Below, in pieces: positions 1 to 31,988 of a DNA stretch of 31,988 nucleotides. The first letter of the stretch is position 1, and every line of letters starts with the position of its first letter. The position numbers were made by a program, and so were the translations under genes. Below the pieces are notes generated by a model. The model made no database searches, had not been told where the DNA came from, and worked only from the letters and a program-made list of their open reading frames with translations. This DNA is from a virus. Taxonomy: Duplodnaviria; Caudoviricetes. The stretch lies in the IMG/VR virus record IMGVR_UViG_3300048589_000239, positions 1-31,988 of that record; one strand, 5' to 3'.

Positions 1-241
1 CCAGGGCATCCTGAATCTTGATCCGACCAAAGCCGACATTGGTCAGAACGCTTTGCTCGCCCATCTGTTTACATATATCCATGGCATCGTCAACGGAATC
101 GACCGTCCGGCTTGTATTCCAGATCCCGCCGAAGTCCAGCTTCAACTTCTTCGTCTGATAATTGGGATGCTCGCCCAACTGAATCACAGCAACATTGGAT
201 GTCCTATAAACAGTCCGCCATTGCCAACTAACGCGCGACAT
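1..241 (-). CDS. Hypothetical protein, partial (runs off the left edge); not in the ORF track
   Basis: ATG at 241-239 with AAGGAG RBS at 252-247; open for 80 codons (MSRVSWQWRTVYRTSNVAVIQLGEHPNY...) to the window edge. Confidence 0.7.
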   Translation of the reverse strand, partial: MSRVSWQWRTVYRTSNVAVIQLGEHPNYQTKKLKLDFGGIWNTSRTVDSVDDAMDICKQMGEQSVLTNVGFGRIKIQDAL

Positions 242-252
242 AATATCTCCTT

Positions 253-287
253 AAAAAAGAAAGGGCCGGGGGGTCAGATCCCCGGCC
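253..287 (-). terminator. Intrinsic terminator-like hairpin after recT
   Basis: GGCCGGGG(264-271)/CCCCGGCC(280-287) stem followed on the minus strand by a TTTCTTTTTT tract. Confidence 0.7.
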
Positions 288-303
288 ATGAAGATTCGTT
301 TGA

Positions 304-1356
304 TCAGAAGTTCAGGACATCGAGGCAGACAAGCAGCGCCTCGGTGTCGAGATCTTTGATCAATTCCAATTTTACCCCTAGCGCTTCCTCGAAGTCAGCC
401 CGCTTGTGACCCTCTTTCGCAAGCTCTCTGATCCGCCCCTGGACCTCGGCGACCCTGGCCAATCTCTCGGCCTCGGCTTTCGATTCCTTCTCCTGGCGCA
501 GAGTCTCCTGCGTGAGCGTTTCGCCTCTCTCATTTTTTTCAGCAGGCATCTCATGGGTGTGTTCCATCTCGATGATGTTGGGATCTGTCTGTCGATCAGA
601 GATCTTGATGATCGCCTGATCAACAGCAAGGGCTCTGCCGATCTCTGTCGATTTGGGAGCACGCTTGCAAAGATCCTTGAGCACAGTCTTGAGAGACATT
701 GCATCGAAGTGTTCAATCCATGGACCATCGCCCGCCTTGAAAGCCCGGCTGAATTTTCTAGCATGTTCGACAACTTCCTCGCGTGTCCAGATCTTATAAT
801 CAAAGCCGCCGTAGATTGTTTTGTAATAGGCATAGTAATCTGTGGGGCTCAGCCCTGCCTTGAGCGATCTTTGTTTCACATGCTTGAAGTATGTCTGTGA
901 TCCTTTCTCATGTTTGAGTTCATCGCCTGCATACACCTTGTCGCAGACGATCTCTGAGTACATCCTTGTGTTGGTCATGAGCTTCGGCCAGCCCATGTAC
1001 CCGATCTGAAAAGTTGCCTCGCCGGCATAGGGAATGATCCATGATTCATTCATCGCCCCTGTTCCAATGTCCAGACCCATCTGCGCGGCGGTAAAGAGAG
1101 CGCCGAGAAATGAATCGACATTACAACTGAGAAGCTTCTGGTTCTTCCGCAACGTATTCAAAGCCAGGAAGCGCATCCGATCTGTCGTCTGGAGATGGCT
1201 CGGCATACAGTATCGAATATTCTCCGAGAGCGACATGATGATCTCGGTGATCTCTCTCTCCCGTTCCTGCATCCAATTGAATTGGTGCTGGCTCTGATGA
1301 TGCGATCTTTCCTGCCCCTGATTTTTTTGCTGCTGGCTTACGATTATTTTTCCCAC
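304..1356 (-). CDS. recT: RecT-family single-strand annealing recombinase
   Basis: Motifs SFLGALFTAAQMGL, WIIPY..EATFQIGYMG, VYAGDE, GPW..HFDAMSLKTVLK..KRAPKSTE; GTG start with AGAGGA RBS. Confidence 0.9.
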   Translation of the reverse strand: MGKIIVSQQQKNQGQERSHHQSQHQFNWMQEREREITEIIMSLSENIRYCMPSHLQTTDRMRFLALNTLRKNQKLLSCNVDSFLGALFTAAQMGLDIGTGAMNESWIIPYAGEATFQIGYMGWPKLMTNTRMYSEIVCDKVYAGDELKHEKGSQTYFKHVKQRSLKAGLSPTDYYAYYKTIYGGFDYKIWTREEVVEHARKFSRAFKAGDGPWIEHFDAMSLKTVLKDLCKRAPKSTEIGRALAVDQAIIKISDRQTDPNIIEMEHTHEMPAEKNERGETLTQETLRQEKESKAEAERLARVAEVQGRIRELAKEGHKRADFEEALGVKLELIKDLDTEALLVCLDVLNF

Positions 1357-1909
1357 GAGATCTTTCCTCTTTGATGATGTCGAATTCAGGCTTGCGTCTT
1401 ACGCCGATCTGGGCGAGCTGTTCGGCCTTGGCTCTGAGATCAGGATCATCTGATTCAAGAGCCTTGGTGATGGCCGTCTTCGACCATTCGTATTTGATCC
1501 GAACGAAGTCGCCGTACATGATCTTGTGCTTCGGCAGGCATTCCATGTCCTCTTTGATCTCGCAGTATTCATCTGATCTCAGCCTGACCAGATACTCCTG
1601 GCCGGTGAACATCTCAAAGCCATTTGTTTCCATCGCCCATTGGAGATGTCTCATAAAGCCATCTAGGTTTGACTTGGCGGATTTTTTTGCTTCGGTAAAT
1701 CGTTTGACGAGATCGGAGAAGTGTTCGAGCTGGAGGGTAAGCTTGTCGTGGATGTACTTGTAGGAATCTACCTTTAATTTTCCAGCCTCCATGAGGGCAT
1801 CTTGTTCATCCCAATTGATGTTGTCGATGCAATCATCGGCTTCTTTGAGAGCCCTGAGAAGCTTATGCAGGGGCTTCTCAGACGCGAGTTCCAGAGAACT
1901 CATGATCAT
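1121..1909 (-). CDS. Siphovirus Gp157-like protein with a C-terminal extension overlapping recT
   Basis: KVDSY-coiled coil-AMETNG...KTAITKAL pattern typical of Gp157; adjacent to an SSAP gene; GAAAGGAG RBS. Confidence 0.65.
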   Translation of the reverse strand: MIMSSLELASEKPLHKLLRALKEADDCIDNINWDEQDALMEAGKLKVDSYKYIHDKLTLQLEHFSDLVKRFTEAKKSAKSNLDGFMRHLQWAMETNGFEMFTGQEYLVRLRSDEYCEIKEDMECLPKHKIMYGDFVRIKYEWSKTAITKALESDDPDLRAKAEQLAQIGVRRKPEFDIIKEERSRGKNNRKPAAKKSGAGKIASSEPAPIQLDAGTGERDHRDHHVALGEYSILYAEPSPDDRSDALPGFEYVAEEPEASQL

Positions 1910-2050
1910 GTCTCCTTTCCTAAGATGGATTGACAGGGCCGAAGGAAGGCCCCTTTAAAACGATGTCGGATCATATCAATAATATTAAGAGAGGGAAAGA
2001 TGAAACACATGCCCAGAAAGGGTTTGGAGAAAAATCAGGATGATGATCTG

Positions 2051-2088
2051 AAAATAAAATCGGGACCAGATCGCAATGATCTGATCCC
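2051..2088 (-). terminator. Intrinsic terminator-like hairpin
   Basis: Minus strand GGGATCAGATC-ATTGC-GATCTGGTCCC (one G:U pair) followed by GATTTTATTTT. Confidence 0.6.
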
Positions 2089-2127
2089 TGAATCGGCTAA
2101 GTCTTACAGAGAGATCTCATTATAACA

Positions 2128-2156
2128 GACAGGGCTGTCCGATTGGATGCCCTGTC
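2128..2156 (-). terminator. Hairpin just after the Cys-rich ORF
   Basis: GACAGGGC(2128-2135)/GCCCTGTC(2149-2156) inverted repeat; weak U tract. Confidence 0.4.
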
Positions 2157-2163
2157 CTTCTGA

Positions 2164-2331
2164 TCAATGATCTGCCTTCTCCGATTCGTAACATCGCTTG
2201 CAGAGGTTGCAATGATCACAGGTAAGAGAGATCTGGCCACACCCGGAACATTTACCCCTGGTCATCCCCTGCTTTTCAGGGGTCCAATAAAGGGCGCAAT
2301 GGAGACAGTATTCTCCGATCGACCATTTCAT
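2164..2331 (-). CDS. Small Cys-rich (metal-binding-like) protein, about 55 aa
   Basis: ATG at 2331 with GAAGGGGG RBS; CxxC...CxxC...CxxCxxCxxC. Confidence 0.6.
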   Translation of the reverse strand: MKWSIGEYCLHCALYWTPEKQGMTRGKCSGCGQISLTCDHCNLCKRCYESEKADH

Positions 2332-2342
2332 CTTTGCCCCCT

Positions 2343-2597
2343 TCAATCGTTGATCACATGGAGGAGTTCTGTTCCATCGACATCATAGATGATCGCAGCC
2401 ACATCTCCTGAGGGTGTCTTGACAACCCTACACATGGTTGACAGGACCTTCTTTCCATCGGGGAGATCGAGCCCCAGCAGGGCTGGATAGGTATTCATTC
2501 TGTGATCAGATGCCTCGATGATATAAAACGTCTTGTCCTCTGAGAGATCATTTTCCTGGAGGCGAATGCTCCAGACATAAGTTGGAAAATTCGTCAT
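2343..2597 (-). CDS. Hypothetical protein (84 aa)
   Basis: ORF with AGGA RBS, in line with the leftward gene block. Confidence 0.6.
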   Translation of the reverse strand: MTNFPTYVWSIRLQENDLSEDKTFYIIEASDHRMNTYPALLGLDLPDGKKVLSTMCRVVKTPSGDVAAIIYDVDGTELLHVIND

Positions 2598-2623
2598 GGG
2601 TTTTCCTAAAATGTTGAGAGAGA

Positions 2624-2652
2624 GAAGGGGGGAATAGTGGGTTCCCCCCTTC
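2624..2652 (-). terminator. Perfect 11-bp hairpin after the 190-aa gene
   Basis: GAAGGGGGGAA(2624-2634)/TTCCCCCCTTC(2642-2652); followed on the minus strand by TCTCTCTC rather than a pure U tract. Confidence 0.5.
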
Positions 2653-2666
2653 GTTATGGAGTCGCC

Positions 2667-3239
2667 CTACCCGATGCGTTCCACCTGGAACCCATGATGG
2701 GCAAGCCATGTCAAGGCTTTGTGCGTATCGAAGTCCCAATTCATTTCAAAGCCATCAAGCTCGAATGCCTTTCGGTAGATGTCTTTGGGCGGGAACTTCG
2801 CCCCGTCGATGATCACAGCCCATGCCTTGAACGACATCGGGGTTTTCGCCAAAGCCTTCGCGGCTTTCTTGATCAGATCGGGACCACAGGCAAGCTCGTC
2901 ATCATCGAGCGCCCTGACTCCATACCCTCGCTCTTCTTTGGGTTTCTCTGCCTTCTCTGCCTTGGGTTGGTTTGCAGGATCGGCAGGATCATTTAGTTTC
3001 TGTTCGATGGTTTCCATGAGATAGCCTTTCGGATTTTTCATGTCGTCCACCAATTGAGCGACCTGGGCAAGCAGGGCTTTGAGAGCCATGAGCTTGTTCG
3101 GGTCGATCGTCTCTTGCAACATGATCTCGGCGGCAAGAGATGTCTCTTCTTTCGCCTCGGCTGGTTTCTTGACAGCCTTGGTCTTCTTGGCAACAGACGC
3201 TTGAGCAGAAACTTTCGATACAGTTTTCTTCTTGGACAT
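2667..3239 (-). CDS. Lys/Ala-rich N-terminus plus C-terminal SCO5918/ScoMcrA-head-like putative DNA-binding domain
   Basis: AAAGGAG RBS; C-terminal WAVIIDGAKFPPKDI...DFDTHKALTWLAHHGFQV resembles the 'V.IdG..YPpK...dFtTh.A...L...GF.v' pattern. Confidence 0.5.
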   Translation of the reverse strand: MSKKKTVSKVSAQASVAKKTKAVKKPAEAKEETSLAAEIMLQETIDPNKLMALKALLAQVAQLVDDMKNPKGYLMETIEQKLNDPADPANQPKAEKAEKPKEERGYGVRALDDDELACGPDLIKKAAKALAKTPMSFKAWAVIIDGAKFPPKDIYRKAFELDGFEMNWDFDTHKALTWLAHHGFQVERIG

Positions 3240-3267
3240 GGGCGTTCTCCTTTGAACATGAGTCCAG

Positions 3268-3295
3268 TTAAATAAACGGGATCGAGATGATCCCG
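3268..3295 (-). terminator. Intrinsic terminator-like hairpin
   Basis: CGGGATC-GAGAT-GATCCCG (3277-3295) followed on the minus strand by TTTATTT. Confidence 0.55.
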
Positions 3296-3308
3296 AGTTC
3301 GGGTAATT

Positions 3309-3635
3309 TCAGCAACCTTTCTGATCTTCGATGAATTGAGAGACGATCTTGATCCATGCCTTCGCATCGGTCAGGGGGTCGCCCGAGAACTCGAAGTCAC
3401 AGACATCGGCGTCGATCTCTTGATCATCTTTCATGAGACAGATCGGGAGGCCATCGGCTTCATCAAAGAAGGGGGTTGCAAGTATTTCGATTCCATCTTG
3501 GATCTGGCATCGAACAAGGTTTTCCTCTCCAAAGAGTTCAACCCTTGACATCCATTGGGGGCGGTTCTTGTTGATCTCAGGGATCACACAGAACTTCATG
3601 TAATTCGTAACAAAATTGTGTTTCACGTTGATCAT
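3309..3635 (-). CDS. Hypothetical acidic protein, first gene of the leftward unit
   Basis: ATG at 3635 with GGAG RBS at 3647-3644, preferred over the ORF-track start at 3653. Confidence 0.6.
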   Translation of the reverse strand: MINVKHNFVTNYMKFCVIPEINKNRPQWMSRVELFGEENLVRCQIQDGIEILATPFFDEADGLPICLMKDDQEIDADVCDFEFSGDPLTDAKAWIKIVSQFIEDQKGC

Positions 3636-3694
3636 ATCTTTGGCTCCAATCACATGGGGGCTCTGTGTTTCATCTCGCCCGCCTTACAATAACC

Positions 3695-3722
3695 TTATCG
3701 GGCAAAATCAGAAAACCTTTAG
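3695..3722 (-). promoter_or_regulatory. Sigma28 (FliA)-type promoter for the leftward genes
   Basis: Minus strand CTAAAGGTTTTCTGATTTTGCCCGATAA = TAAA-N15-CCCGATAA, versus consensus TAAA-N15-GCCGATAA. Confidence 0.65.
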
Positions 3723-3749
3723 TAAAATCGGTCACTTACCGAATATGAT

Positions 3750-3758
3750 TGGTAAAAT
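3750..3758 (+). promoter_or_regulatory. Possible extended -10 element (TGn-TAAAAT) for the rightward operon
   Basis: TGGTAAAAT about 60 nt upstream of the ParB-N start; no good -35 element. Confidence 0.25.
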
Positions 3759-3818
3759 CCCGGACCTTTCTACATACTCATTTCAAACCCCTAATAAAAT
3801 CGGAGGCTTAAAAAGCCC

Positions 3819-4376
3819 ATGGAAATCGTTCATAAGAACTTGGAGAGCCTTACCCCTTATGAGAACAATCCGAGAATCAATGATCATGCAATTGATCAGA
3901 TGATTCAGATCTTGACCGAGTTCGGTTTCAAGATCCCGATGTTGATCAGAGGCAATGGCGAGATCGTCGATGGTCATTTGCGATTCAAGGCGGCGAGCAA
4001 GATGGGCATGACTTCCGTGCCGACCATCGCCGTTGATGATTGGAGCGAGGCACAGATCAAAGCCGCCCGCCTCGTGATCAATAAATCCGTTTCATGGGCA
4101 GAGTGGGATAACCAAAAGTTGAAAGATGAATTCGCTGCGCTCTCGGCATTGAACTTCGATCTCGACTTTACAGGGTTCAACAAGTCCGAACGCGAGCTGA
4201 TCGTCAACGGCTGGCAGTCAGACATGGACCAGCTCAACAAGATCAAAGAAAATGAAGATGGCATACCCGCGAAGCTTACCCTCTCTGTGCCTCAGGACAT
4301 GAAGGCAGAGATCAAAGAATGGCTCGAAAGCATGATAGAGGAAAGCGAGTATGCAGACGACATCAAGCTTTCCTAA
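3819..4376 (+). CDS. ParB N-terminal (ParB/Srx-like) domain protein of the terminase-associated type
   Basis: LTPYENNPRIND, EFGFKIP, IVDGHLR.KAA, RLVINK...AEWD motifs; GGAGG RBS. Confidence 0.85.
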   Translation: MEIVHKNLESLTPYENNPRINDHAIDQMIQILTEFGFKIPMLIRGNGEIVDGHLRFKAASKMGMTSVPTIAVDDWSEAQIKAARLVINKSVSWAEWDNQKLKDEFAALSALNFDLDFTGFNKSERELIVNGWQSDMDQLNKIKENEDGIPAKLTLSVPQDMKAEIKEWLESMIEESEYADDIKLS

Positions 4377-5220
4377 GCTGAACCTTCTCTGCGCGTACCC
4401 TTATTTCAAGCAGCCTGTGATCGACATCATGAAGACGAAGACCTTTCAGGATAATGTCAACATGCTCGTCGACTCGGGCGCGTTCACGGCATGGAAGGCC
4501 GGCAAGCCGATTCGTCTCAAGGACTATCTGCGCTTTCTCGATTCATTGCCTTATCAGCCATTCGGTTACTTCATGCTTGATGTGATCGGACAGCCTGAGC
4601 AGACGCGGGCGAATTATACTGCGATGTACGATCACGGCTATCGACCTATCCCGATCTTTACTCGAGGAGAAGAGTTCGATGAGCTGGAAAATTATTATGC
4701 CACCACTGACTATGTTGGGATCGGGGGCCTCGTCAAGACCCCTGGCGCTCAGGGCTTCGTCAAGCGGATCATGCAGAAAGTGAACGGGCGCAAGGTTCAT
4801 CTGCTGGGGTTCGGCAATCAATTGATGATCAAGGCCACCCGACCATACTCGGTCGATGCCTCGACCTGGGTTTCAGCTCTGACCTACGCCCGCATCTCTC
4901 TCTATGTCGGATCGGGGAAGTGGATGGCCCTGACCAAAAAAAATTTTCTCGACAAACCAAAGCCGGAAGTTCTTGCAGCTCTCGCCCGCTATGACGTAGA
5001 TTACCTCGAACTTGCGCAACAGAAAAACTGGCGAAACAGCGGCAAAGGCGATGTGGCTATCGAGCATCTGACCTTTCGATCATTCGTTCGCTATGCAATC
5101 GACATGGAGCAGGTCATCGGCACGAAATATTTTCTGGCCGTGGCTTCCGATTGGCAGGCACGTCTGGCGCTTGACGCTTATCTGTGGGCGAAACAAAAGT
5201 ACGGGAGTAATCAGCAATGA
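4351..5220 (+). CDS. dpdA: DpdA-like (TGT-fold) DNA 7-deazaguanine transglycosylase
   Basis: TGT-like motifs LVDSGAFT, LDVIG, PIPIF, YVGIGG, VHLLG, SVDASTW; directly upstream of the que genes. Confidence 0.75.
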   Translation: MQTTSSFPKLNLLCAYPYFKQPVIDIMKTKTFQDNVNMLVDSGAFTAWKAGKPIRLKDYLRFLDSLPYQPFGYFMLDVIGQPEQTRANYTAMYDHGYRPIPIFTRGEEFDELENYYATTDYVGIGGLVKTPGAQGFVKRIMQKVNGRKVHLLGFGNQLMIKATRPYSVDASTWVSALTYARISLYVGSGKWMALTKKNFLDKPKPEVLAALARYDVDYLELAQQKNWRNSGKGDVAIEHLTFRSFVRYAIDMEQVIGTKYFLAVASDWQARLALDAYLWAKQKYGSNQQ

Positions 5221-5909
5221 AGAGATTGGTTCTGCTTTCCGGCGGCATGGATTCATCGACGGTCCTTGGCTATGTGCGTTCTCTCTCTTTGAAAGGGGAC
5301 GAGCTCGCGGCTCTCTCATTTGAGTATGGCAGCAAGCATAATGAATCGGAGTGGGCGGCGGCCCAGAAGATCGCTGACTTCTACGGGGTGGAGCTTGATC
5401 GGGTGCATCTTGATTTCATCGCGCGCCTGTTCAAATCAGATCTGCTGGCCTCCGGAGCGGAAGTTCCCGAGGGCCATTACGCCGATGACTCGATGAAGAA
5501 AACCGTGGTCCCGTTTCGCAATGGGATCATGCTGGCTGTGGCTGCCGGTTACGCAGAAAGCAATGGCTTCCATGAGATCTATCTGGCTAACCATGCAGGC
5601 GATCACACGATCTACCCTGACTGCCGGCCTGAGTTCACAGAGGCGATGCACATGGCTGTCAAGCATGGGACCTGGGCGGGGATTGAATTCGTTGCGCCCT
5701 TCACCCATCTGAGCAAGGCCACCATCTGCAAGTTCGGTGTCTCTCTCGGGGTCCCTCTCGATCTCACATGGTCATGTTATAAAGGCGGATCTGTTCACTG
5801 TGGGGTGTGCGGTACCTGTCACGAGCGCCGTGAGGCTTTCCTTCTCGCGGGCGTCGATGATCCAACCGAGTATCTTGAGATGCCTCCATTGCCAGCCGTG
5901 GGGGCCTGA
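5217..5909 (+). CDS. queC: 7-cyano-7-deazaguanine (preQ0) synthase
   Basis: LLSGGMDSST PP-loop, VPFRNGIML, YPDCRPEF, TWSCY...HCGVCGTC..R zinc site. Confidence 0.95.
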   Translation: MKRLVLLSGGMDSSTVLGYVRSLSLKGDELAALSFEYGSKHNESEWAAAQKIADFYGVELDRVHLDFIARLFKSDLLASGAEVPEGHYADDSMKKTVVPFRNGIMLAVAAGYAESNGFHEIYLANHAGDHTIYPDCRPEFTEAMHMAVKHGTWAGIEFVAPFTHLSKATICKFGVSLGVPLDLTWSCYKGGSVHCGVCGTCHERREAFLLAGVDDPTEYLEMPPLPAVGA

Positions 5910-5914
5910 TCATC

Positions 5915-6331
5915 ATGTCCGGCCAGAGACTTGTGATCATCAGTTGCGGCGCCACCAAGCGGGCAATCCGTTCGCCTGCGGGCCAGCTCTATATCGGGTC
6001 CTATTTCAGAGCCAATCTTGCATGGGCGCTGTCCGTCGTGAGGCCGGATCAGGTCATCATCCTGTCGGCTGCGCATGGCTTCCTCAGACTCCATGACCAG
6101 ATCGACCCTTACGATCTCAGGATGGGAGATGAGAACTCCATCGGCATAGGCATTCTGAAAGAGCAGGCCGAGAGCATGGGGCTTCTCAATCGAGACACGG
6201 TTGCGATCTGTGGGCAGGACTATCTCGACAAACTTCTCTGCGTGATCCCCGATGTCAAGCTCCCATGTCGGGGGCTGACTCTTGGTTGGTCTGTTGGATT
6301 ACTCAAACGAAACAGGGGGCGGTGGCCTTGA
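5915..6331 (+). CDS. DUF6884-like (YaaA-related) protein
   Basis: VIISCGATK..PAGQLY.GSYF...IILSAAHGFL...IDPYDLRM signature. Confidence 0.65.
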   Translation: MSGQRLVIISCGATKRAIRSPAGQLYIGSYFRANLAWALSVVRPDQVIILSAAHGFLRLHDQIDPYDLRMGDENSIGIGILKEQAESMGLLNRDTVAICGQDYLDKLLCVIPDVKLPCRGLTLGWSVGLLKRNRGRWP

Positions 6332-6765
6332 AAATTTCAATCATGAGAACTCTTGAGTTTGATGCTGCTCATCGGGTGATGCACCATGAGAGCAAATGCG
6401 CGAACATGCACGGACACAGATACAAGGTCGAGATCCATGCGCGGGCTGATGCGCTCGATCCTCTCGGGCGGGTGATCGACTTCTCGGCGATCAAGGCTCG
6501 GGTGGGTGGATGGATCGACACGCATTGGGATCATACAACGATCCTCAACGAGAACGATCCATCGGTGAGGGCCTGGCAGGATGATCTGATCCCCGCCAAC
6601 AAGCCCATCTACCTGATGCCCGAGAACCCGACCGCCGAGAACATGGCGAAGTATCTGCTCGATCGCTGCAAGGATGAACTCATGCTCGGCACATCCATCG
6701 AGGTCTGGAAAGTCGTTGTATGGGAAACGCCGAACTGCAAAGCGGAGGCAGAGCTGCCATCATGA
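6328..6765 (+). CDS. queD: 6-carboxy-5,6,7,8-tetrahydropterin synthase
   Basis: FDAAHR, C.NMHGHRY, VIDF, WDH, NPTAENMA, VWETP; TTG start overlapping the previous stop (TTGA). Confidence 0.93.
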   Translation: MKISIMRTLEFDAAHRVMHHESKCANMHGHRYKVEIHARADALDPLGRVIDFSAIKARVGGWIDTHWDHTTILNENDPSVRAWQDDLIPANKPIYLMPENPTAENMAKYLLDRCKDELMLGTSIEVWKVVVWETPNCKAEAELPS

Positions 6766-7424
6766 AAACCTATCGAGTCAAGGAGATCTTTGGGCCAACG
6801 CTCCAGGGCGAGGGATCTCATGCTGGTCGTGCGGTGATCTTTCTCCGCTTCGCTGGATGCAACAAATGGAATGGTCGAAAGGAAAGCAAGCCGAACTCGG
6901 TCTGCTATTACTGTGATACTGATTTCGTCGGCGGCGAGAAGATGACGGCCGTCGAGATCGAACAGGCGATCGTGGATCTCGCCGAGAGACATGGGCACAT
7001 CTACGCCCTTGGCAACTATCATATCGTGATCTCGGGTGGTGAGCCCATGATGCAGCTCGATGAAGATCTCGCCGAGCTTCTAAGCCGCCAGCATTTCCTT
7101 CATCTTGAGACGAATGGATCAATACCCATCTCGCCCCTGATCAATCGGCATCTCAAGCATGTGACGGTTTCCCCGAAACAGCCCTGGCCGGAAACAAAAG
7201 TCCGCTACGCCGAGGCTCTTAAGATCCTTTACCCCTTCATCGGTGGACCCCGCGCGATGGTATCGCTCGATTCATTCCACGAGTTCAAGGCGGGGGAGAT
7301 CTTCATTCAACCAATCCATGATGAGCATTACGAGAGGAATCTGCGCGAGGCGATCAAGATCTGTCTTGCCAATCCCAATGTCAGGCTCTCACTTCAGCAA
7401 CACAAAATCCTGGGGCTTCAATGA
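6762..7424 (+). CDS. queE: 7-carboxy-7-deazaguanine synthase (radical SAM, Cx14CxxC type)
   Basis: EIFGPTLQGEG, FLRFAGCN-x13-CYYCDTDF, SGGEP, LETNG, VSPK, RLSLQQHK; ATGA coupling at 6762. Confidence 0.93.
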   Translation: MKTYRVKEIFGPTLQGEGSHAGRAVIFLRFAGCNKWNGRKESKPNSVCYYCDTDFVGGEKMTAVEIEQAIVDLAERHGHIYALGNYHIVISGGEPMMQLDEDLAELLSRQHFLHLETNGSIPISPLINRHLKHVTVSPKQPWPETKVRYAEALKILYPFIGGPRAMVSLDSFHEFKAGEIFIQPIHDEHYERNLREAIKICLANPNVRLSLQQHKILGLQ

Positions 7425-8005
7425 TGACGATGAACAGACGCGAGCAGATCGAGGAACACGTTCGGGGGATCATGCAACTCTTTGATCTGGATCTGACCGA
7501 TGAGTCCTTGAAGGATACACCAAAGCGGGTTGCCAAGATGTTTGAGGCTGATCTGTTCTGGGGATTGAAAGAGGAACATATCCCAAGCATGACGACACAG
7601 GAAAGCAAGGGATATAACGAGATGCTGATCGAGACTAATATCACAGTCAACAGTCTTTGCGAACATCATCTCGTTCCGATCATCGGCTCGGCTCACATCG
7701 CCTATATCCCAAATGATCGCATCCTGGGTTTGTCGAAGTTCAATCGCATCGTCGATTACTTTTCGCGCAGGCCGCAGGTACAGGAAAAGCTAACAAAGAA
7801 CATCAAGGACTTTCTGGTCAAGGTCTTGAACACCGAAGATGTTGCCGTCGTTATCGACGCCTCCCATATGTGCGTTAGAATGAGAGGGATACGTGACCGC
7901 GCATCCATCACCCGCACCAACATGCTGGGAGGTCGATTCATGGCGGGCGAAGTGAGAGCTGAGCTGTTCGCCTCGCTGCCCAAGCCTTCGGACCTCCAGC
8001 TATGA
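7421..8005 (+). CDS. folE: GTP cyclohydrolase I
   Basis: DTPKRVAKM, SLCEHHLVP, GLSKFNRIV, RRPQVQEKLT, HMCVRMRG. Confidence 0.95.
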   Translation: MMTMNRREQIEEHVRGIMQLFDLDLTDESLKDTPKRVAKMFEADLFWGLKEEHIPSMTTQESKGYNEMLIETNITVNSLCEHHLVPIIGSAHIAYIPNDRILGLSKFNRIVDYFSRRPQVQEKLTKNIKDFLVKVLNTEDVAVVIDASHMCVRMRGIRDRASITRTNMLGGRFMAGEVRAELFASLPKPSDLQL

Positions 8006-8018
8006 GAAGGGTTCGAGC

Positions 8019-8495
8019 ATGGCTGGACAGAAACCCCCGGCCCGAGATCAAAAGTCAAAACCAGTTATAACAGATCGCCCCAATCGCAGAGGACCGAAGC
8101 TCAAGGGACCGACCACAGAGGAAGACTTTCAAGCCTTCGAGTCTCTCTGCAAGATTCAGTGCACGCTTCACGAGGTGGCGGCCTTCTTCAATTGCGATGC
8201 TGACACGGTTGAGAAGCGGGTACGCGAACATTACGGGATGAAATTTTCGGAAGTTTTTCGACTAAAAAGGAAGGCGGGCATCGTCTCCCTGAGACGCCTC
8301 CAGTATGAGAAAGCCCTGGCAGGGAACACGACAATGCTTATCTGGCTTGGGAAGCAATACCTGAATCAATCCGAAGAGCCTGCGCCCCATGATCCCGATC
8401 CGATTGCCGATGGGCGGACTGATGACGAGATCGAGGCAGAGATCGAGCGCCGCATCAAGCGCCGCATGGACCGCGAGGCAAGGATGAAGAAATGA
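8019..8495 (+). CDS. terS: Terminase small subunit
   Basis: HTH-like CTLHEVAAFF plus SLRRLQ..AL.GNTTMLIWLGKQYL.Q motif; precedes the large subunit. Confidence 0.8.
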   Translation: MAGQKPPARDQKSKPVITDRPNRRGPKLKGPTTEEDFQAFESLCKIQCTLHEVAAFFNCDADTVEKRVREHYGMKFSEVFRLKRKAGIVSLRRLQYEKALAGNTTMLIWLGKQYLNQSEEPAPHDPDPIADGRTDDEIEAEIERRIKRRMDREARMKK

Positions 8496-9940
8496 GATCA
8501 AGGTCGGTCGAGCTGCTGACAGACATGCGTGAGTCTGATCTGAGATGGGCGAGGAAGGATCTCCTTGAATTCATCCTTGAGATCATGCCTCACTACAAAG
8601 TCAATTTTCATCATCGCATCATCTGTGATCGTCTGACCCAACTGCTCTGGCAGAAAGGTCAGAGGATCATAGTTTGCGTTCCGCCCCAGTATGGAAAGTC
8701 ACAGATCGTCAGCCGATGCCTTCCGGCTTTCATTCTCGGCAATGATCCGAAGGCCAAGATCATCATGGGATCTTACTCGGCCTCGCTCTCGATGACTTTC
8801 AACCGGGCCGCGCAATCGGTCATGGAGTCCGACCGATACCGAGAGATCTTTCCCGATACTCTGATCAGACCATTCGCACCCAGAAAATTCATGCGCACAG
8901 CTCAGCTCTGTGAGACGAGCGAGTATGGATATCTTTATACGGTGGGCGTTGGCGGCTCGACGACAGGGCGATCGGCAGATCCCCTGCTCATCATCGACGA
9001 TCCATTCAAAGACTGGAAAGAAGCTCTTTCACCTGTGCGCAGGCAGAACGTGATTGATTGGTTCGGCTCTGTGATCGAGTCGCGTCTGTCTCTCAATGCC
9101 AATGTCGTGATCGTCCAGACCCGATGGCATGAGGGCGATCTGTCCGGCTACCTTCTCAAGCGGGCGCTGGAGGATCATGATGCAACCCAATGGGAGCTGC
9201 TTAATTTCCCTGCGATCGTTGAATCAATGGATGAGCTGCACCCCGACGATCCGAGAAAGATGGGCGAGGCCCTTTGGCCAGAAGTCAAAGGGGACGCCGC
9301 GAAGCTATCAAGGATCAAGAAGGATGTAGGCTCTTATATCTTTGCCGCGCTCTGGCAGCAACGACCAAGATCGGCGACCGGCAACATAGTCGATCCCAAA
9401 TGGTGGCGGCGGTATCGTGTCCTTCCTCATGACTTTGAAGAGATGATCATCTCCTGCGATGCAGCATTCAAAGACTTCGAGACGAGTGACTATGTGGTCA
9501 TCCAGGTCTGGGGTCGCAAGGGTGTTGACAAGTATCTTGTGGATCAACGCAGAGATCACATGGACATTATCCGAACATGCAAAGAACTTGTTAACATGAA
9601 GGTGAAGTATCCCGATTGCGATGCGGTCTACATCGAGGACAAGGCGAATGGAACGCCCATCCTCCAACTGCTAAAGAAGAAAGTCAGCGGCCTTATTCCA
9701 GTCGAGCCGGATGGTTCCAAGGTCGCGCGTGTTCATTCCGTGTCGCCTCAGATCGAGGCTGGCAATGTCTGGCTTCCCGATGAAAGTATTGCCCTGTTCC
9801 CCATTGACAAGTTCATAGAAGAGTTCAGCAACTTCCCGCTTGCAGACAATGACGATCAAGTGGATGCTGCCACTCAGGCATTGGAAAAATTATCCGAAGG
9901 CGAGAACCATTACTTGCGAGCCCTCTTGGGAAAGGAGTAG
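8492..9940 (+). CDS. terL: Terminase large subunit
   Basis: Walker A PPQYGKS, Walker B LIIDDP, TRWHEGDL, nuclease motifs SCDAAFK, IEDKANG, DDQVDA. Confidence 0.95.
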   Translation: MRSRSVELLTDMRESDLRWARKDLLEFILEIMPHYKVNFHHRIICDRLTQLLWQKGQRIIVCVPPQYGKSQIVSRCLPAFILGNDPKAKIIMGSYSASLSMTFNRAAQSVMESDRYREIFPDTLIRPFAPRKFMRTAQLCETSEYGYLYTVGVGGSTTGRSADPLLIIDDPFKDWKEALSPVRRQNVIDWFGSVIESRLSLNANVVIVQTRWHEGDLSGYLLKRALEDHDATQWELLNFPAIVESMDELHPDDPRKMGEALWPEVKGDAAKLSRIKKDVGSYIFAALWQQRPRSATGNIVDPKWWRRYRVLPHDFEEMIISCDAAFKDFETSDYVVIQVWGRKGVDKYLVDQRRDHMDIIRTCKELVNMKVKYPDCDAVYIEDKANGTPILQLLKKKVSGLIPVEPDGSKVARVHSVSPQIEAGNVWLPDESIALFPIDKFIEEFSNFPLADNDDQVDAATQALEKLSEGENHYLRALLGKE

Positions 9941-9948
9941 GACCCGTT

Positions 9949-11640
9949 ATGCTTGATACCCTGAAACAACAGATCACGGTTCGTCTTGATGATTGGGTCA
10001 ACACGTTGACCAATCTTAATGTGCTTGGAAAGGACAAGCGTCTCGGCGCTGAAGCACAAGCCTACCTTATGTCTGAGGCCGAAGCCGAACAGACTTATGC
10101 TGGCGACGACATCGCGGCGAAGGTTGTGGACATGCTGCCCAAAGACATGGTGCGCGAGGGATTCAAGCTCAAGATCCCCTCATGGGATGAGGAGGAGATC
10201 AGAAACTTCGTGACCTACCTTGAGCAGGAGATGAATTGGAAAGCGACTTTCCAGAAAGCTCTGAGCTGGGCTCGCCTCTATGGTGGCTCGGGTGTTGTGC
10301 TCGGGATCGACGATGGAGCGCCCAACCCCTGGTCGCCCCTCAATACGAATCGGATACGACGCTTTGACTTCGCCACTGTTCTGAATCGGCATGAGCTGAT
10401 CTGGCACATGATTGATGAGGACCCCCGATCGAAGAACATGGGGATGCCCCTGATCTATCAGATGCAACCCCGCTTCTCGATGAAGGGCGCGGGCATCACG
10501 ATGATCCATCATAGTCGGATCATTCGCTTCGATGGCGCCACCCTCCCCAGGCAGCTCTTTATTCAGAATGGGTTCTGGTCGAACTCTGTGCTGGCAACCT
10601 TCCGGGGGCCGCTCTCGAATTATTCACAGACCCAGGATGGCGTTGCAACCCTGATGACTGAGATGGCGGTCGGCGTGTTCAAGGTCAAGGACATGCAGCG
10701 CCTGATGTCGATGAAGGGCGGCAAGAACCTTCTGCAAGAGCGCCTGAACCTGATGGATCTCGCCAAGTCCGTTGTAAACAGCATCATGATTGATGCCGAA
10801 GAGGATTACGAAAGAAAGCAAACACCGCTGACGGGTGTGGCTGATGTGATCGACAGGATGGAAAGGCGACTGGTCACGGCCTCCGGATATACCCATACCG
10901 TTCTCTTGGGCGAGGCCCCTGGCGGCGGCATGGGCGAGACAGGAAAGTCTGAGCGACACGATTACTATGACTTTGTGAGCAAGGAGCAGGAGGTTGTTCT
11001 TAAGCCTGCGCTTCGCCAATTCATCAAGCTCTGCTTCCTGAACAAGTCGGGCCCCACCCGAGGGATCGAGCCCCCGGATTGGGACATCGAGTTTTGCCCT
11101 CTCTGGCAGGAGCCGGAAGGCGAGGTCCTCGATCGCAAGGAAAAGCAGGCCCGCATCGACGACATCTATATCAAGAACCAGACGATCACCCCCGAAGAGA
11201 TCGCCCGCTCCCGCTTTGGCTCTGGAGAGTACAGCCATGAGACGAAGCTTGATTTCGATCGGCCAACCATGGAGGAAACGCCGACGAGAGAGGAAGTGGA
11301 GGCAGGCTTGCCGCCTTTGCTCGAGGAAGAAAATCCAGAACAGACAACGGGTACAGGGGGAGGGCAATCAAACCCGCCGGCCGTCGAGGAAGTAGATCAA
11401 ACCGATGATGAGAGATCAGCCGAGATCATGAAGGACACAAGCCTGAATGGAGCCCAGGTCACATCATTGATCACAGTCATCCAGGAGGTCGCCAGCAATC
11501 GCCTGCCGAGAGAGACAGGGATCAGGATCATCGAGGCGAGCTTTGGCCTATCGACAGAACAGGTGGAAAGCATCATGGGCGAGGTCGGCAGAAGCTTCAC
11601 CATCGACCAGGGGCAGGGTCAGAGCGGAGGCGCTGAGTAA
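9949..11640 (+). CDS. Portal protein (DUF1073-like) with an acidic C-terminal extension
   Basis: WARLYGGS, IHHSRIIRF, T.LLGEAPGG, F.PLWQ motifs; position after terL. Confidence 0.85.
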   Translation: MLDTLKQQITVRLDDWVNTLTNLNVLGKDKRLGAEAQAYLMSEAEAEQTYAGDDIAAKVVDMLPKDMVREGFKLKIPSWDEEEIRNFVTYLEQEMNWKATFQKALSWARLYGGSGVVLGIDDGAPNPWSPLNTNRIRRFDFATVLNRHELIWHMIDEDPRSKNMGMPLIYQMQPRFSMKGAGITMIHHSRIIRFDGATLPRQLFIQNGFWSNSVLATFRGPLSNYSQTQDGVATLMTEMAVGVFKVKDMQRLMSMKGGKNLLQERLNLMDLAKSVVNSIMIDAEEDYERKQTPLTGVADVIDRMERRLVTASGYTHTVLLGEAPGGGMGETGKSERHDYYDFVSKEQEVVLKPALRQFIKLCFLNKSGPTRGIEPPDWDIEFCPLWQEPEGEVLDRKEKQARIDDIYIKNQTITPEEIARSRFGSGEYSHETKLDFDRPTMEETPTREEVEAGLPPLLEEENPEQTTGTGGGQSNPPAVEEVDQTDDERSAEIMKDTSLNGAQVTSLITVIQEVASNRLPRETGIRIIEASFGLSTEQVESIMGEVGRSFTIDQGQGQSGGAE

Positions 11641-12527
11641 TGGCAAGGGCTCCCAGAATTACAGACTTCATCCCCAGAAGCCGCGGGAAGCCTGAGCCCA
11701 TCCCTTACCCCCGGAATCTTGAAAGGCGATACGAGGCCATCGTCCAGGGCCTTGTGGTTGGGCTCAAGGAGGATCTGCAAAAAGAGATCGTCGAGATACT
11801 GCCGACGATCGAGGCTCTGTTCCGATCCGACATGGGCGCGACGCGGCGGGTTGATTCCGTGGGCCGCCCGATCCGTCTTGATGTGATGGATGCCTTCGAT
11901 CTGCTGGAGGCGGCTTTGCAGAGAATCCTCGTGCGGTTTTCCAAAGCCCTTGGCGATCGCCGTCCCCAGATCTTTGATGTGGGCCAGGCCATCAACAAAG
12001 ACAACGAGCAGGCGACCCGCAAGTCTTTGGGGGTCGATCTTCTCCTTGGCGATGATCAGATCATCAAGGCGATTGATGCCTGGACCAAAGACAACGCCCG
12101 CAAGATTACGCGCCTTGCCGAGGCCGAGACGGATCAGATCAGCAACATAGTTCTTAACGGGTATCGTCAAGGACTCTCTCCTTCCGGTCTGAGATCAGCC
12201 ATACTGGATACATTCAGAGCTGCCGATGAGCGCGAAAGCCAGATGGTCCGGGGGATGTCGCTGGAGGCGCGGGCCAAGTTTGTCGCCCGCGATCAGGTCG
12301 CAACCCTTAATGGACAGGTCGCCCGCATGAGACAGGAGCGGGTCGGGATCAGAAAGTACATTTGGCAAACCTCTGAGGATGAGCGGGTTCGTCCATCTCA
12401 TGCTGCCCTTAACGGCGAGATCATGAGCTGGGATGATCCACCCCCTTTCGGTCATCCCGGCATGGACTACAATTGTCGATGCGTGGCAATCCCATATCTC
12501 GATGACACAGATGATGATGACGAGTAG
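11640..12527 (+). CDS. Head morphogenesis protein (SPP1 gp7/Mu gpF family)
   Basis: RAKFVARDQ, YIWQTSEDERVRPSH, HPG.DYNCRCVAIP. Confidence 0.9.
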   Translation: MARAPRITDFIPRSRGKPEPIPYPRNLERRYEAIVQGLVVGLKEDLQKEIVEILPTIEALFRSDMGATRRVDSVGRPIRLDVMDAFDLLEAALQRILVRFSKALGDRRPQIFDVGQAINKDNEQATRKSLGVDLLLGDDQIIKAIDAWTKDNARKITRLAEAETDQISNIVLNGYRQGLSPSGLRSAILDTFRAADERESQMVRGMSLEARAKFVARDQVATLNGQVARMRQERVGIRKYIWQTSEDERVRPSHAALNGEIMSWDDPPPFGHPGMDYNCRCVAIPYLDDTDDDDE

Positions 12528-12574
12528 GCCGGTTTGAGGTTAGAGTCTCAATTAAATTTCGGAGTCATAAAAAA

Positions 12575-13840: not shown

Positions 13841-13878
13841 TCATCCATCGACCCCTTCATTTTAAAGGAGATGAATTC

Positions 13879-14352: not shown

Positions 14353-14433
14353 GCCTCTCGCCATTCATTCAGACCCTTGACGATGTAATCCGTAGTTCCT
14401 GAACACTCTTTTAAATCTTAGGAGAAAGACATA

Positions 14434-15393
14434 ATGAAGCGTCGCAACCAGAAAGGCCCGCGCTTTCCCCGCCTCGACTCGAATGAAAGCATCTTCTTTG
14501 CCCGCGAATTGGAGACGATCAAGTCGCGTTCTTATGATGTGCGGTACCCCACTCTTCGCCAGCGGGAAGTTATTCCTGTCAGCTTCGAGGGTGATCCCGC
14601 AGCCCAGACCATCACATACAACCAGTATGATCAGGTGGGCATGGCCGCGATCGTAAGCGATTACGCGACCGACTTCCGCAATGTCGAGATCTCGGGCAAG
14701 CAGTTCACAGCGCAAGTCAAATCGCTGGGCGCGGCCTATCAGTATTCTGTGATGGAGATCAGATCAGCAGCCAAAACAGGCAAGCCTCTGACGACATCCA
14801 AGGCGAACGCAGCCCGTCGCGCGATCATGCAGCTTGAGCGTGACATCGCTTTCTGGGGCGACAGCGCCGCTGGCCTCCAGGGCTGGCTGACCAATGCCAA
14901 CATCCCCGATGTGACCCTGGCTCATGGGGCCTGGCTTGATGATGCGCAGACAACTGCCAACATCCTCGCCGATCTCAACAACCTTGCGAACTCTGTGATC
15001 GACACCTCGAAGTCGGTCGAAGTTCCCAACACGATGCTCCTCCCAATCCCTTACTACACCAAGCTGGCAACAACGCCACGCTCGGATGGTTCCGACATGA
15101 CGATCCTGAATTACTTCCTTGAGAACACCCCGTTCATCGACAGCGTTGATTGGTTGGCTGAACTCGCCGCTGCAAACTCGGGCGGCAATCTCTCGGATGA
15201 TACGGCGATCGTCTATGATCGCAACCCTGAAAAGTTCACGCTTGAGATCCCTCAAGAGTTTGAAACCTTCGCGCCTGAGCTGCGGGGCATGGCTTACAAG
15301 GTTGCAGTGCATGAGCGTTGCGGCGGCGTGATCATCCCTTATCCTCTGTCGCAGGCGATGACCGATGACATCGGCGGCAACGTGTCCAGCTAA
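14434..15393 (+). CDS. Major capsid protein (DUF2184, HK97 fold)
   Basis: FFARELE, YSVMEIRSA..G.PL, IAFWGD...GL.G.L, RCGGVIIPYP motifs; AGGAG RBS. Confidence 0.88.
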   Translation: MKRRNQKGPRFPRLDSNESIFFARELETIKSRSYDVRYPTLRQREVIPVSFEGDPAAQTITYNQYDQVGMAAIVSDYATDFRNVEISGKQFTAQVKSLGAAYQYSVMEIRSAAKTGKPLTTSKANAARRAIMQLERDIAFWGDSAAGLQGWLTNANIPDVTLAHGAWLDDAQTTANILADLNNLANSVIDTSKSVEVPNTMLLPIPYYTKLATTPRSDGSDMTILNYFLENTPFIDSVDWLAELAAANSGGNLSDDTAIVYDRNPEKFTLEIPQEFETFAPELRGMAYKVAVHERCGGVIIPYPLSQAMTDDIGGNVSS

Positions 15394-15447
15394 TAGAGAA
15401 GTCCAAGGAAAAAACCCCAGTTAACAAACCAAAGATAGGAGTCTTCC

Positions 15448-18835: not shown

Positions 18836-18868
18836 CCCTCAACCTCAAAGCGATAGGAGCAAGAAGCA

Positions 18869-19300: not shown

Positions 19301-19341
19301 TTGAACATGATGTACGAGAGAAGCGGAAAGGACTTAAACCT

Positions 19342-19791: not shown

Positions 19792-20009
19792 GCATCGGGC
19801 GGGCATCATCAATCCCGCCCTTTGAACCAGGGCAGTTGAACATCAATTGGTTTATATGGCGACCTGTGATCAGAAAGGTCGCCACGTACACTGAGATCAT
19901 GAAGTATTGGACGATCAAGGATCTGATGGACTGCCATGAAGCTTTGGATCTCCAGGATGCCGCCGACCAATACTATCATGACATGCAGAGGAAGCTGACC
20001 CAATCGTGA
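19788..20009 (+). CDS. Tail chaperone C-terminal (T-like) segment, probably made as a frameshift fusion
   Basis: WRPV...ATY.E....WTI.DL.D.HEALD pattern; -1 frame relative to the upstream gene. Confidence 0.7.
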   Translation: MSIGRASSIPPFEPGQLNINWFIWRPVIRKVATYTEIMKYWTIKDLMDCHEALDLQDAADQYYHDMQRKLTQS

Positions 20010-29727: not shown

Positions 29728-29728
29728 C

Positions 29729-31552
29729 ATGGGTCTGATCAATATCGGCGGCGAAAATCAGGGGCCTCCTGGACCACAAGGCCCCCAAGGCCCTGCAGGT
29801 GCAGCGGGCGAAGCAGGTGTGCGAGGCAGCACCATTCAAAGAGGCGCAGATCCAGAGGCAGTCACAGGAGCATTGGCCGGTGATCTTTTCATTCTGGAAA
29901 CCAATGGCCTGCTTTATCAGTACGATGGCTCACAGTGGGTTGACACAACGATCCATGTCAAGGGCAGCCGCTGGTATGAATCAGGCACAGAGCCAACCGA
30001 TCTCGTCCCTGGCGATGTGATTTATGATGATGTGGGTTTTCTCCAGATCTATACCGGCACAGGCTTTGAAGGCATCGGCAGGATCTCCCCTGCGAAGTGG
30101 TACTTCGGAACAGATCCTACTACTGATGTAAGCGTTCCTCTTGATGGTGACATCTTCGTCGTCATCTCCAATGGCGATGTCTTTCAATACTCAATTGATA
30201 ACGGCTGGGCTGGATTTCCAGATACTCCACTTTATAACATCAAGGGCGCTGATGGAGCGCAGGGTCCACAAGGCGAACAGGGACCACAAGGCGAACAGGG
30301 ACCACAAGGCGACCCTGGTGGAGGACCGACCGGAGGTACAACAAATCAGGTACTAAGAAAAAACTCCGGGACCGATGGCGATTATGATTGGGCCGATAAC
30401 GATCTCCTTTTTTCATCTCAGACTTTCAGCGGCTCCAATGGAATGCTCGGGGCTTTGAAGTTCAAGCCTTCCAATGCAGGATCGACTGGCTACAGCGGCG
30501 GCGCGATCTATCTTGATGATGGGCGATACGCAGCGGGCACCAGAGACATCGGCAAGAAGTGCATTGACTTGAACATGGCATGGAATGGAGTTAACCAACC
30601 CATACCCTCTGGAGCACAGGGTTGCGCAATCGTTGGCGGCGTTTTCAATCGCATGACCAACTCAATTGACAACGCCTTCATCGGTGGTGGTCTAACGAAC
30701 AGGGTTAGTGGTTCGTATTCAAGCATTCTGGGCGGAACCAATAATATAGCCAGTGGCTCCAACAGCGGGATCTATGCCTCTGATGCTTCCTCGGCTTCAA
30801 CCTTCGGGGTTGTGCTGGGTGGCCGATTCATGAACTGCAGCAATTTTTATGCTGTCACGTTCGGGGAATACACTCAGTCTCCTGAGGATGCAACTCTCTC
30901 TCTTGGAAAATACCCAGGCTTCTCTCTGTTCAGTGCAGACGAACGCGCCAATATCTGGAAGGTCGGCGGCACCAAGCGCAGCATGTCGCTCGGCTATTAT
31001 CTGAACCTGCCATCGGGCGCGGGGGTTGATTCAGCGACAGCGGCTGCTGAGAATACTTTCTGGTGGCATACAACCAATCGTCAGAATGAATCAAATGCTT
31101 TCGGTCTTCGTGCTGGCACAGGCATGACGACAAAGTATCGCATTACGATGCCGAACGGAAACCCAGGCGGCGCTCAAAGAATTCTCAGAGTCACCGGCTC
31201 AACTCTCACGTCAGGAATTTATGAGGTAGCCACGCAATGGGTGGCCGTTGGCACAAATGCTCTCGGAAATAGTGGAAGCTCGAAGGTTGTTGATTTTCTT
31301 GAAGGCCGCGTTCACACGATAGGCCTTAATGCCGATTGCACTCTCACTTTTGCCAACTCAAAATCTGGAGACATCTATCATCTCGTGATCACGCAGGACA
31401 GCACACCCAGGGCAATTACATGGCCTGCTTCAGTGAAATGGCCTGGAGGTGTTGCCCCTACGTTATCGCCGGGTGCATTCGCTGTTGATGTTGTGCAATT
31501 GGTCTACGACGGAACGAATCATTATGGAACCATCGCGCAAGCGTTTGCATAA
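29729..31552 (+). CDS. Collagen-repeat tail/head fibre protein
   Basis: Two Gly-X-Y tracts, repeated GD.F/Y modules, GG..N beta-repeat region, C-terminal [17 protein letters not shown] domain. Confidence 0.75.
30266..30312 (+). repeat. 18-bp coding tandem repeat (collagen GPQGEQ), about 2.6 copies
   Basis: CCACAAGGCGA at 30266, 30284 and 30302. Confidence 0.9.
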
Positions 31553-31564
31553 GGGCAGGGAAAA

Positions 31565-31936
31565 ATGACTATCAAGGTAAAGACAGGAGCCAAGATTCCC
31601 CTCTGGGTTGCGATTGATGATGGCTCTGAGGATCTGATCATCTCGGCCCGCGTGACCTCGCGCGATCCTTTCACGGTCTGGGCTGATGGGACTCTTCTCG
31701 ATTTCATCGAATACTCTGAGGGCGAGTACGAAAACAACAGCCTGGACATGCCTGATGTTCCGGCGATTGATGTCGTCTATTCTGTGTTTCAGAACGATGG
31801 CATTACCCTGATCAGGAAAGCCTATGAGCTGTTCCTGAGAGACGATGGCGGCGGGGCCTCTGATGATGGGGCGCTCATTGGTCAGATACTCGACGAGGAT
31901 CAATTGATCGGCGTCGTTCACACATGCGAGGACTAA
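31565..31936 (+). CDS. Hypothetical acidic virion-associated protein
   Basis: ORF with AGGG RBS following the fibre gene. Confidence 0.6.
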   Translation: MTIKVKTGAKIPLWVAIDDGSEDLIISARVTSRDPFTVWADGTLLDFIEYSEGEYENNSLDMPDVPAIDVVYSVFQNDGITLIRKAYELFLRDDGGGASDDGALIGQILDEDQLIGVVHTCED

Positions 31937-31939
31937 GAC

Positions 31940-31988
31940 ATGATGAGTCAGCTTCTCTCGATCATCAAAGGCACAGATCGAACAATCA
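31940..31988 (+). CDS. Partial ORF running off the right edge (MMSQLLSIIKGTDRTI...)
   Basis: GAGGA RBS at 31928-31932, ATG 31940. Confidence 0.5.
   Translation, partial: MMSQLLSIIKGTDRTI

Follow-up and report, generated by a model that had tools for sequence, protein, structure and literature searches.

Does the most abundant word in a phage genome reveal the target of the DNA-modifying enzyme that the phage encodes? The question is raised by the viral record IMGVR_UViG_3300048589_000239 (Duplodnaviria; Caudoviricetes), of which the whole stretch analysed, 31,988 nucleotides, is referred to here as the window. It represents about 71% of the genome of a contractile-tailed phage, as a linear fragment of 32 kb, and carries both a genome-wide excess of GATC (1..31988) and a cassette (3819-8005) encoding a DpdA-type DNA guanine transglycosylase together with enzymes for synthesis of the base preQ0 (7-cyano-7-deazaguanine). 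An initial annotation had proposed that DpdA exchanges G for preQ0 at GATC, and that such sites have accumulated as its targets. We found that the GATC excess is real and extreme. However, among relatives the excess and the cassette come and go separately, and the excess is therefore likely to be a lineage-wide signature rather than an enzyme target.

GATC is the commonest tetranucleotide in the window, with 469 copies or 14.7 per kb. Base composition would give 123 (3.8-fold, about a four-fold excess), and an excess is present in every 1-kb bin. The hand counts of the initial annotation proved exact (18 GATC among 28 GAT in 1-1000, 18 in 11641-12540 and 8 in 31561-31988), and so did its count of five in the non-coding stretch 2041-2120; the non-coding DNA as a whole contains 29 sites against 7.9 expected in 2029 nucleotides. 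Its figure of 18-20 sites per kb applies to the dense bins but not to the average, as the bins range from 6 to 22. Codon use, as had been supposed, is not the whole explanation. When synonymous codons were shuffled in 41 genes, 437 sites were observed against 275 (1.59-fold, z 15), with increases in all three reading frames (143/37/257 observed, 103/16/155 in the shuffles) in addition to the non-coding enrichment. GATC was the top tetranucleotide under this shuffle in both the window and its complete relative G001 (45.5 kb, nucleotide identity about 80%). The enrichment withstood statistical correction only in part: it survived the codon shuffle at about 1.6-fold, but was mostly gone at second order. 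A first-order model predicted 310 sites (1.5-fold) and dinucleotide-preserving shuffles gave 309±15 (z 10.7), while trinucleotide-preserving shuffles gave 426±11, leaving 1.10-fold (z 3.9). The bulk of the excess consists of GA/TC, AT and GAT/ATC biases (dinucleotide ratios of 1.38 for GA/TC, 1.32 for AT, 0.70 for AC/GT and 0.40 for TA), and the GATC-specific remainder is about 10%.

Synonymous codon choice tilted towards GATC. Asp was encoded by GAT in 120 of 140 cases before C and in 240 of 416 elsewhere (odds ratio 4.3); the control pairs, other codons with T before C, tilted likewise but more weakly (1.5-2.6). Lys, Glu and Gln codons ended in G in 88 of 92 cases before ATC, compared with 174 of 268 elsewhere. 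At four-fold sites, G was used in 52% of 194 cases before ATC, 49% of 137 before other AT-codons and 37% of 672 elsewhere. Because four-fold G is equally common before other AT-codons, part of the bias favours GAT and not GATC. The largest excess at codon junctions was that of AT (1.46), a dinucleotide without G.

Other viral loci were compared after those shorter than 5 kb or with a duplicate signature had been dropped, leaving 74 of 104 random loci, 72 of 120 pulled by the GATC cluster, 65 of 76 carrying DpdA and 117 of 165 of the capsid family. The GATC density of the window exceeded that of all 72 GATC-pulled loci (maximum 13.6 per kb), and its codon-corrected GATC exceeded that of 63 out of 63 random loci.

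The initial annotation implied that GATC should track the dpdA-que cassette. This did not hold among the relatives, which were found through the major capsid protein (14434..15393, plus strand). L174, with a capsid protein 87% identical to that of the window, carries queC, queD, queE, folE and the end of a dpdA gene cut by the contig edge; this end is 93% identical to the full-length P0003, which is 72% identical to the window DpdA. L174 nevertheless displayed 6.0 GATC per kb and a codon-corrected observed-to-expected ratio (O/E) of 0.97 (19.9 kb of a 45-kb contig). It retains ATCGAT and other sites lost from the window, and a host different from that of the window is suggested. On the other hand, the complete genomes G006 and G007 (one lineage, capsid identity 61%) and G011 (49%) gave codon-corrected O/E values of 1.78, 1.65 and 1.52, respectively, compared with 1.58 in the window. 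No dpdA or que gene was found in these three genomes by a search that detected six positive controls. Equal enrichment in relatives without the cassette had been named beforehand as a result refuting GATC as an accumulated DpdA target, and this is what was observed. In addition, of 116 capsid-family loci outside the clade of the window, 8 scored 3 or more in O/E and lacked any cassette gene across the sequence examined. The GATC excess and the cassette are thus uncoupled among close relatives.

The clade amounts to a natural experiment: the window and G001 have cassette and excess, L174 the cassette only, G006 and G007 a C5 cytosine methyltransferase and the excess, and G005 (codon-corrected O/E 1.04) neither. 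In G006 and G007 the methyltransferase (L260:15909-17667 in G006; L503 in G007) is accompanied by a protein with a ParB N-terminal domain (ParB-N). When the G006 methyltransferase was considered as a candidate GATC enzyme, three homologues (46-56%) gave second-order GATC O/E values of 0.50, 0.0 and 1.46. In G011, no methyltransferase of the four families searched was found. The slot before the terminase in G005 (L089:1892-3372) encodes ParB-N beside a 295-residue protein, unmatched in Pfam, PHROG and NCBIfam, which is a candidate DNA-modifying enzyme.

The cassette itself was confirmed as the initial annotation had it, with a DpdA-type enzyme at 4351-5220 within a full preQ0 cassette. All its genes lie on the plus strand. 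It is headed by ParB-N (3819..4376; phrog_620, E 6e-42; PF02195, E 8e-5, below its cut-off), followed by DpdA (4351..5220, 289 residues with a tRNA-guanine transglycosylase barrel; phrog_887, E 6e-32), QueC (5217..5909, 230 residues; PF06508 and TIGR00364 above cut-off), a DUF6884 protein without counterpart in G001 (5915..6331), QueD (6328..6765; PF01242; TIGR03367, 88 bits against a cut-off of 89.25), the radical SAM enzyme QueE (6762..7424; phrog_2076; TIGR04508, E 1e-48, below its cut-off) and FolE, GTP cyclohydrolase I (7421..8005; PF01227, TIGR00063). Over the barrel, the window DpdA is 32% identical to that of phage iggy (E 3e-21) and 30% to Rosebush gp2. Its predicted model (predicted local distance difference test score 94.7) best matched tRNA-guanine transglycosylases and the DpdA structure 7ui4; a PDB sequence search with the DpdA profile gave no match. 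Its family, an uncultured one, numbers more than 1000 homologues. D41, D77, H150 and D169 were invariant in 78 homologues; judging from motif position, D41 and D169 would form the catalytic pair. The QueF profile matched folE alone, below cut-off, and QueC lacks a Gat domain. No ArcS appeared when the 44 proteins of the window and 27 open reading frames of G004, a near-identical genome, were scanned with Pfam, a scan that included no search with an ArcS profile. In gene content the cassette corresponds to group 2 of the phage systems described by Hutinet et al. (PMC6884629), and it predicts DNA containing deoxy-preQ0 (dPreQ0).

We considered whether a variant DpdA in the window modifies GATC (or GAT or GA), with selection or mutational protection having accumulated the target since the split from L174. 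We regard this as unlikely. In its favour, the cassette is intact with conserved, probably catalytic aspartates, no other modifying enzyme was found in the phage, and GATC ranks first under the codon shuffle in both the window and G001. Known phage DpdA enzymes are motif-specific, recognizing GA and GGC in CAjan (PMC7544227) and GA in iggy (PMC10484667), and a bacterial DpdA acts in the context CAG/CTG (PMC10164549); none of these motifs is GATC. The dpdA gene also changes faster than its neighbours, with 19 non-synonymous to 59 synonymous codons between the window and L002, compared with 4 to 66 in the terminase gene. An excess driven by DpdA since the L174 split would require a change of specificity. 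Against this reading, L174 has the cassette without the excess, and G011 has the excess with neither cassette nor methyltransferase found. GATC would cover only 5.7% of G, while iggy, CAjan and Rosebush have 16-32% modified (PMC10484667, PMC6884629). Host glycosylases attack 7-deazaguanine DNA, so that additional sites would be a cost, and most of the excess disappears under the second-order model. In the literature searched, which left out most subscription papers, there was no report of a GATC-specific phage DpdA or of a build-up of DpdA targets. As a separate observation, the window and L002 form a mosaic in which dpdA, queC, terminase and capsid genes have many synonymous differences and their neighbours are nearly identical, suggesting recent recombination from the sequence pattern; dpdA shows the largest number of amino-acid changes.

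The DpdA family at large gave a similarly divided picture. Among the 65 DpdA loci, 8 had a GATC O/E of at least 3 and 11 were below 0.7, compared with 0 and 16 among the 74 random loci. When kin were pooled and cassettes masked, 4 of 31 DpdA lineages (from loci retaining 4 kb or more beyond the cassette) had an O/E of at least 3 and 8 were below 0.7. No significant difference in codon-corrected GATC was seen between the 48 DpdA loci and the 63 random ones that reached 8 kb (medians 1.11 and 1.03, p 0.14), which counts against DpdA as the cause. GATC values were scattered over the DpdA tree, whose topology looked unreliable and from which L174 was left out owing to its truncated dpdA. Six loci with the DpdA family of the window (L016, L027, L029, L036, L059 and L074) have nearly eliminated GATC (O/E 0.0-0.1), indicating that their modification has not made GATC safe. 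The characterised phages are poor in their own target: iggy, CAjan and Rosebush gave junction GA values of 0.69, 0.89 and 0.88 (40-45 kb each) and GATC O/E values of 0.56, 0.95 and 1.46, respectively. GA has not built up in the phages in which dPreQ0 has been measured. The GA tilt seen across DpdA carriers nonetheless keeps a softer version of the target idea weakly alive. The DpdA lineages shifted as much or more in TA (-0.10, t -4.8) and AC (t -3.7), which looks like a difference in host or lifestyle.

A second genome-wide feature of the window (1..31988) is a purge of six-base palindromes, with ATCGAT found 0 times against 38 expected and GGATCC once against 15; TGATCA, AGATCT and CGATCG were kept. 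G004, 99.96-100% identical to the window, contributes the missing 13.6 kb, and palindromes were counted on the resulting 45.6-kb composite. Of 38 testable palindromes, namely those expected at least five times, 19 fell below 0.35 of expectation. Observed and expected counts were 0 and 54 for ATCGAT, 0 and 19 for both CAGCTG and TCGCGA, and 2 and 24 for GGATCC; those of the kept palindromes were 65 and 64 for TGATCA, 40 and 35 for AGATCT, and 41 and 58 for CGATCG. This is classic restriction-site avoidance (PMC6286503); it implies hosts in which numerous enzymes cut six-base sites and none cuts GATC effectively. Palindromes containing GA were purged at a rate similar to the others (8 of 15 and 11 of 23), so any dPreQ0 here has not rendered GA-containing sites safe. 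ATCGAT was absent (0 against 23-47 expected in each) from the window, G001, G004, G005, G006 and G007, and present in L174 and G011. In G006 and G007, avoidance extends to words that are not palindromes, among them GAGA, AGAAG and GACCC.

The purge can be turned in favour of DpdA. Three of the four palindromes with a GATC core survive it, and the exception, GGATCC, is the BamHI site, which dPreQ0 does not block in iggy (PMC10484667). GTCGAC and GATATC, both protected in iggy (PMC10484667), are under-represented in this phage, as would be expected if the motif were more restricted than GA. One could picture a DpdA narrowed to GATC (or GAT), with synonymous sites rewritten so that both strands bear a modified G once per 68 bases and every unprotected palindrome purged. 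We hold this specific version to be quite improbable. If true, it would be the first palindrome-specific deazaguanine writer in phage and a new enzyme for site-specific DNA labelling, would link base modification to genome evolution in a new way, and would make enzyme specificity readable from k-mer counts; together with G006 and the subcluster B3 mycobacteriophages discussed below, it would suggest a general rule that phages accumulate the target word of their ParB-linked modifying enzyme.

Another possibility is that the host methylates GATC and that selection favours a phage rich in methylated sites, which would serve it as a protected word or a mark of self. We judge this rather unlikely. 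It would account for an excess present in three frames and in non-coding DNA, for the preference for GAT before C and for G-ending codons before ATC, for the slightly slower change inside GATC and for the cassette-less relatives. Phages of hosts with a GATC-cutting enzyme are depleted in GATC, a Type IIM site, in 46 of 46 cases (PMC6286503), and such pressure is absent here. However, the GATC-specific residual is only 1.1-fold and no host methyltransferase can be shown. Shielding of sites by an overlapping GATC was rejected: 9 of 29 TCATGA overlapped GATC where 10.1 were expected, nor does such an overlap preserve any of the purged palindromes. Under-representation of GANTC marks a CcrM-type alphaproteobacterial signature. 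The window did not display it (GANTC O/E 0.92; random-locus median 0.90). Separately, L387, a viral locus of 35% GC, has GATC at 3.2-fold over the codon shuffle and zero GANTC, with no dpdA or que match within the 20 kb examined; its GATC-specific signal is much cleaner than that of the window.

Taking into account that ParB-N genes adjoin modification genes in the window, G005, G006, G007 and the B3 mycobacteriophage Pipefish, GATC could also be a docking site for a phage protein such as ParB-N. We consider this very unlikely. Even spacing of the sites was rejected: spacing is random, with a coefficient of variation of 1.07 and a longest gap of 618. Of 395 aligned sites, 219 (55%) were common to the window and G001, within the range of six control tetranucleotides (42-61%). 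Random spacing together with free turnover makes fixed binding sites unlikely. Furthermore, G005 has ParB-N without the excess, and G011 has the excess without a ParB match.

The explanation we favour, to which we give about an even chance, is that the GATC excess is a GA/AT-rich lineage signature, likely set by the replication of hosts whose restriction enzymes leave GATC uncut. GATC would be the peak word of a genome-wide signature rich in GA and AT and poor in AC and TA, likely written by the replication and repair machinery of the host. Its persistence is likely explained by hosts that cleave many six-base palindromes and spare GATC; such a host would have no nuclease against GATC, perhaps as a result of its own GATC methylation. 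Removal of forbidden words may push synonymous choices towards GATC. The predicted introduction of dPreQ0 by the DpdA cassette would be a trait apart. If correct, this cautions against deducing a modification target from word counts.

Several observations weigh against a signature of host origin. The window is denser in GATC than all 74 random viral loci (maximum 10.3 per kb). Synonymous change is somewhat lower inside GATC, both against G001 (odds ratio 0.74, p 0.027) and against L002 (0.32, p 0.056). The C5 methyltransferase of G006 and G007 weakens both as cassette-less controls. Adjusted for GC content, DpdA lineages tilt towards GA (+0.10, t 3.5) and GATC (+0.33, t 2.2). The sole unrelated loci denser than the window, L052 (24.7 per kb) and L070 (17.7 per kb) of one lineage, carry the same DpdA family; a scan for their cassette-less relatives gave none closer than 30%, with one at 40% in the existing set. 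(These two loci have also lost GGNCC almost entirely.) Pipefish and Rosebush differ in GATC O/E (3.97 and 1.46) though both grow on the same laboratory genus. This contrast implies that a phage-encoded factor can matter and that the signature need not be that of the host; equally, as Pipefish has the excess with ParB and PAPS reductase and Rosebush a preQ0 cassette with little excess, the signature needs no DpdA. Finally, none of 20 sampled Bdellovibrionota stretches came near the GATC density of the window (maximum 9.3 per kb), and the host machinery as origin of the bias is an inference. That phylum was sampled in the search for a host, which found none; a capsid scan of species genomes gave a best match of 49% identity in a Bdellovibrionales bin. 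A DNA search of window positions 1-20000 against 401 genomes of the phylum returned que/folE homologues as top matches and otherwise short ones, of which one was inspected and lay outside any CRISPR array. Searches with YjbQ homologues and RecT indicated no host. Of 18 listed sequencing runs, 12 contained small shares (at most 0.18) and no RNA run was among them; no conclusion is based on these runs.

As for the remainder of the window, RecT and Gp157 lie to the left of the cassette, and packaging, head, tail and baseplate genes follow it, beginning with the terminase large subunit (8492..9940, plus strand) just downstream of the cassette, as in phage Rosebush. Two hairpins with GATC in the stem, at 2062..2088 (z -3.2) and 3277..3295 (z -3.0), are real as first described, and score as intrinsic terminators on the minus strand, that is, as ordinary terminator-like structures. 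Neither a DNA polymerase A or B nor a Dam, D12, N6/N4 or C5 methyltransferase (PF05869, PF02086, PF01555, PF00145) was found in the complete G001 or the near-identical G004; of these six families, four were also looked for in the record of the window, PF05869 and PF00145 among them, and its 44 proteins were scanned with Pfam. After the tail genes, G004 (L254:14526-17304) and G001 (L083:10580-13454) encode YjbQ, CDP-glycerol glycerophosphotransferase-like, IspD-like and short-chain dehydrogenase proteins, and G006 has two glycosyltransferase-9 genes nearby, possibly a module for decoration of the virion or host surface.

How does the window compare with known systems? Phage genomes avoid restriction sites, with Type II-like six-base palindromes nearly excluded (PMC6286503). 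The window shares this near exclusion, but its purge is unusually broad (half of the testable palindromes), and GATC is raised rather than avoided. It resembles the known dPreQ0 phages in possessing dpdA with folE, queD, queE and queC and no amidotransferase or QueF found, in the barrel identity of 30-32%, and, as in Rosebush, in a cassette directly upstream of the terminase. Unlike them, it has a contractile-tail (myovirus-type) gene set with no polymerase found and a DpdA from the large uncultured family, and is rich in GA and GATC where they are GA-neutral or GA-poor.

The closest precedent is that of the subcluster B3 mycobacteriophages, in which GATC and GGATCC are over-represented, GATC four-fold, for a cause described as unexplained (PMC4841201). 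They differ from the window in being rich in GGATCC (84 against 49), which is purged here. Pipefish has ParB and PAPS reductase in its pre-terminase slot, no DpdA match in the first 50 kb, and its own polymerase/primase. Its module (L501:1-2822) runs ParB, PAPS reductase, ParB upstream of the terminase, and is possibly the modification system behind the B3 signature. As a general driver of GATC the module was not supported, with values of 0.89 in Salgado, 0.64 in 035JT001 and 1.90 in P11VFA (partial genomes). In composition, Pipefish almost equals the window. A genome-wide four-fold GATC excess is common to B3 and the window, Pipefish shows GA 1.42 and GATC O/E 3.97 / 1.76 / 1.15 against 1.38 and 3.8 / 1.51 / 1.11 in the window, and both lack ATCGAT. 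If the lineage-signature explanation is true, the window is another extreme case of this described but unexplained phage signature.

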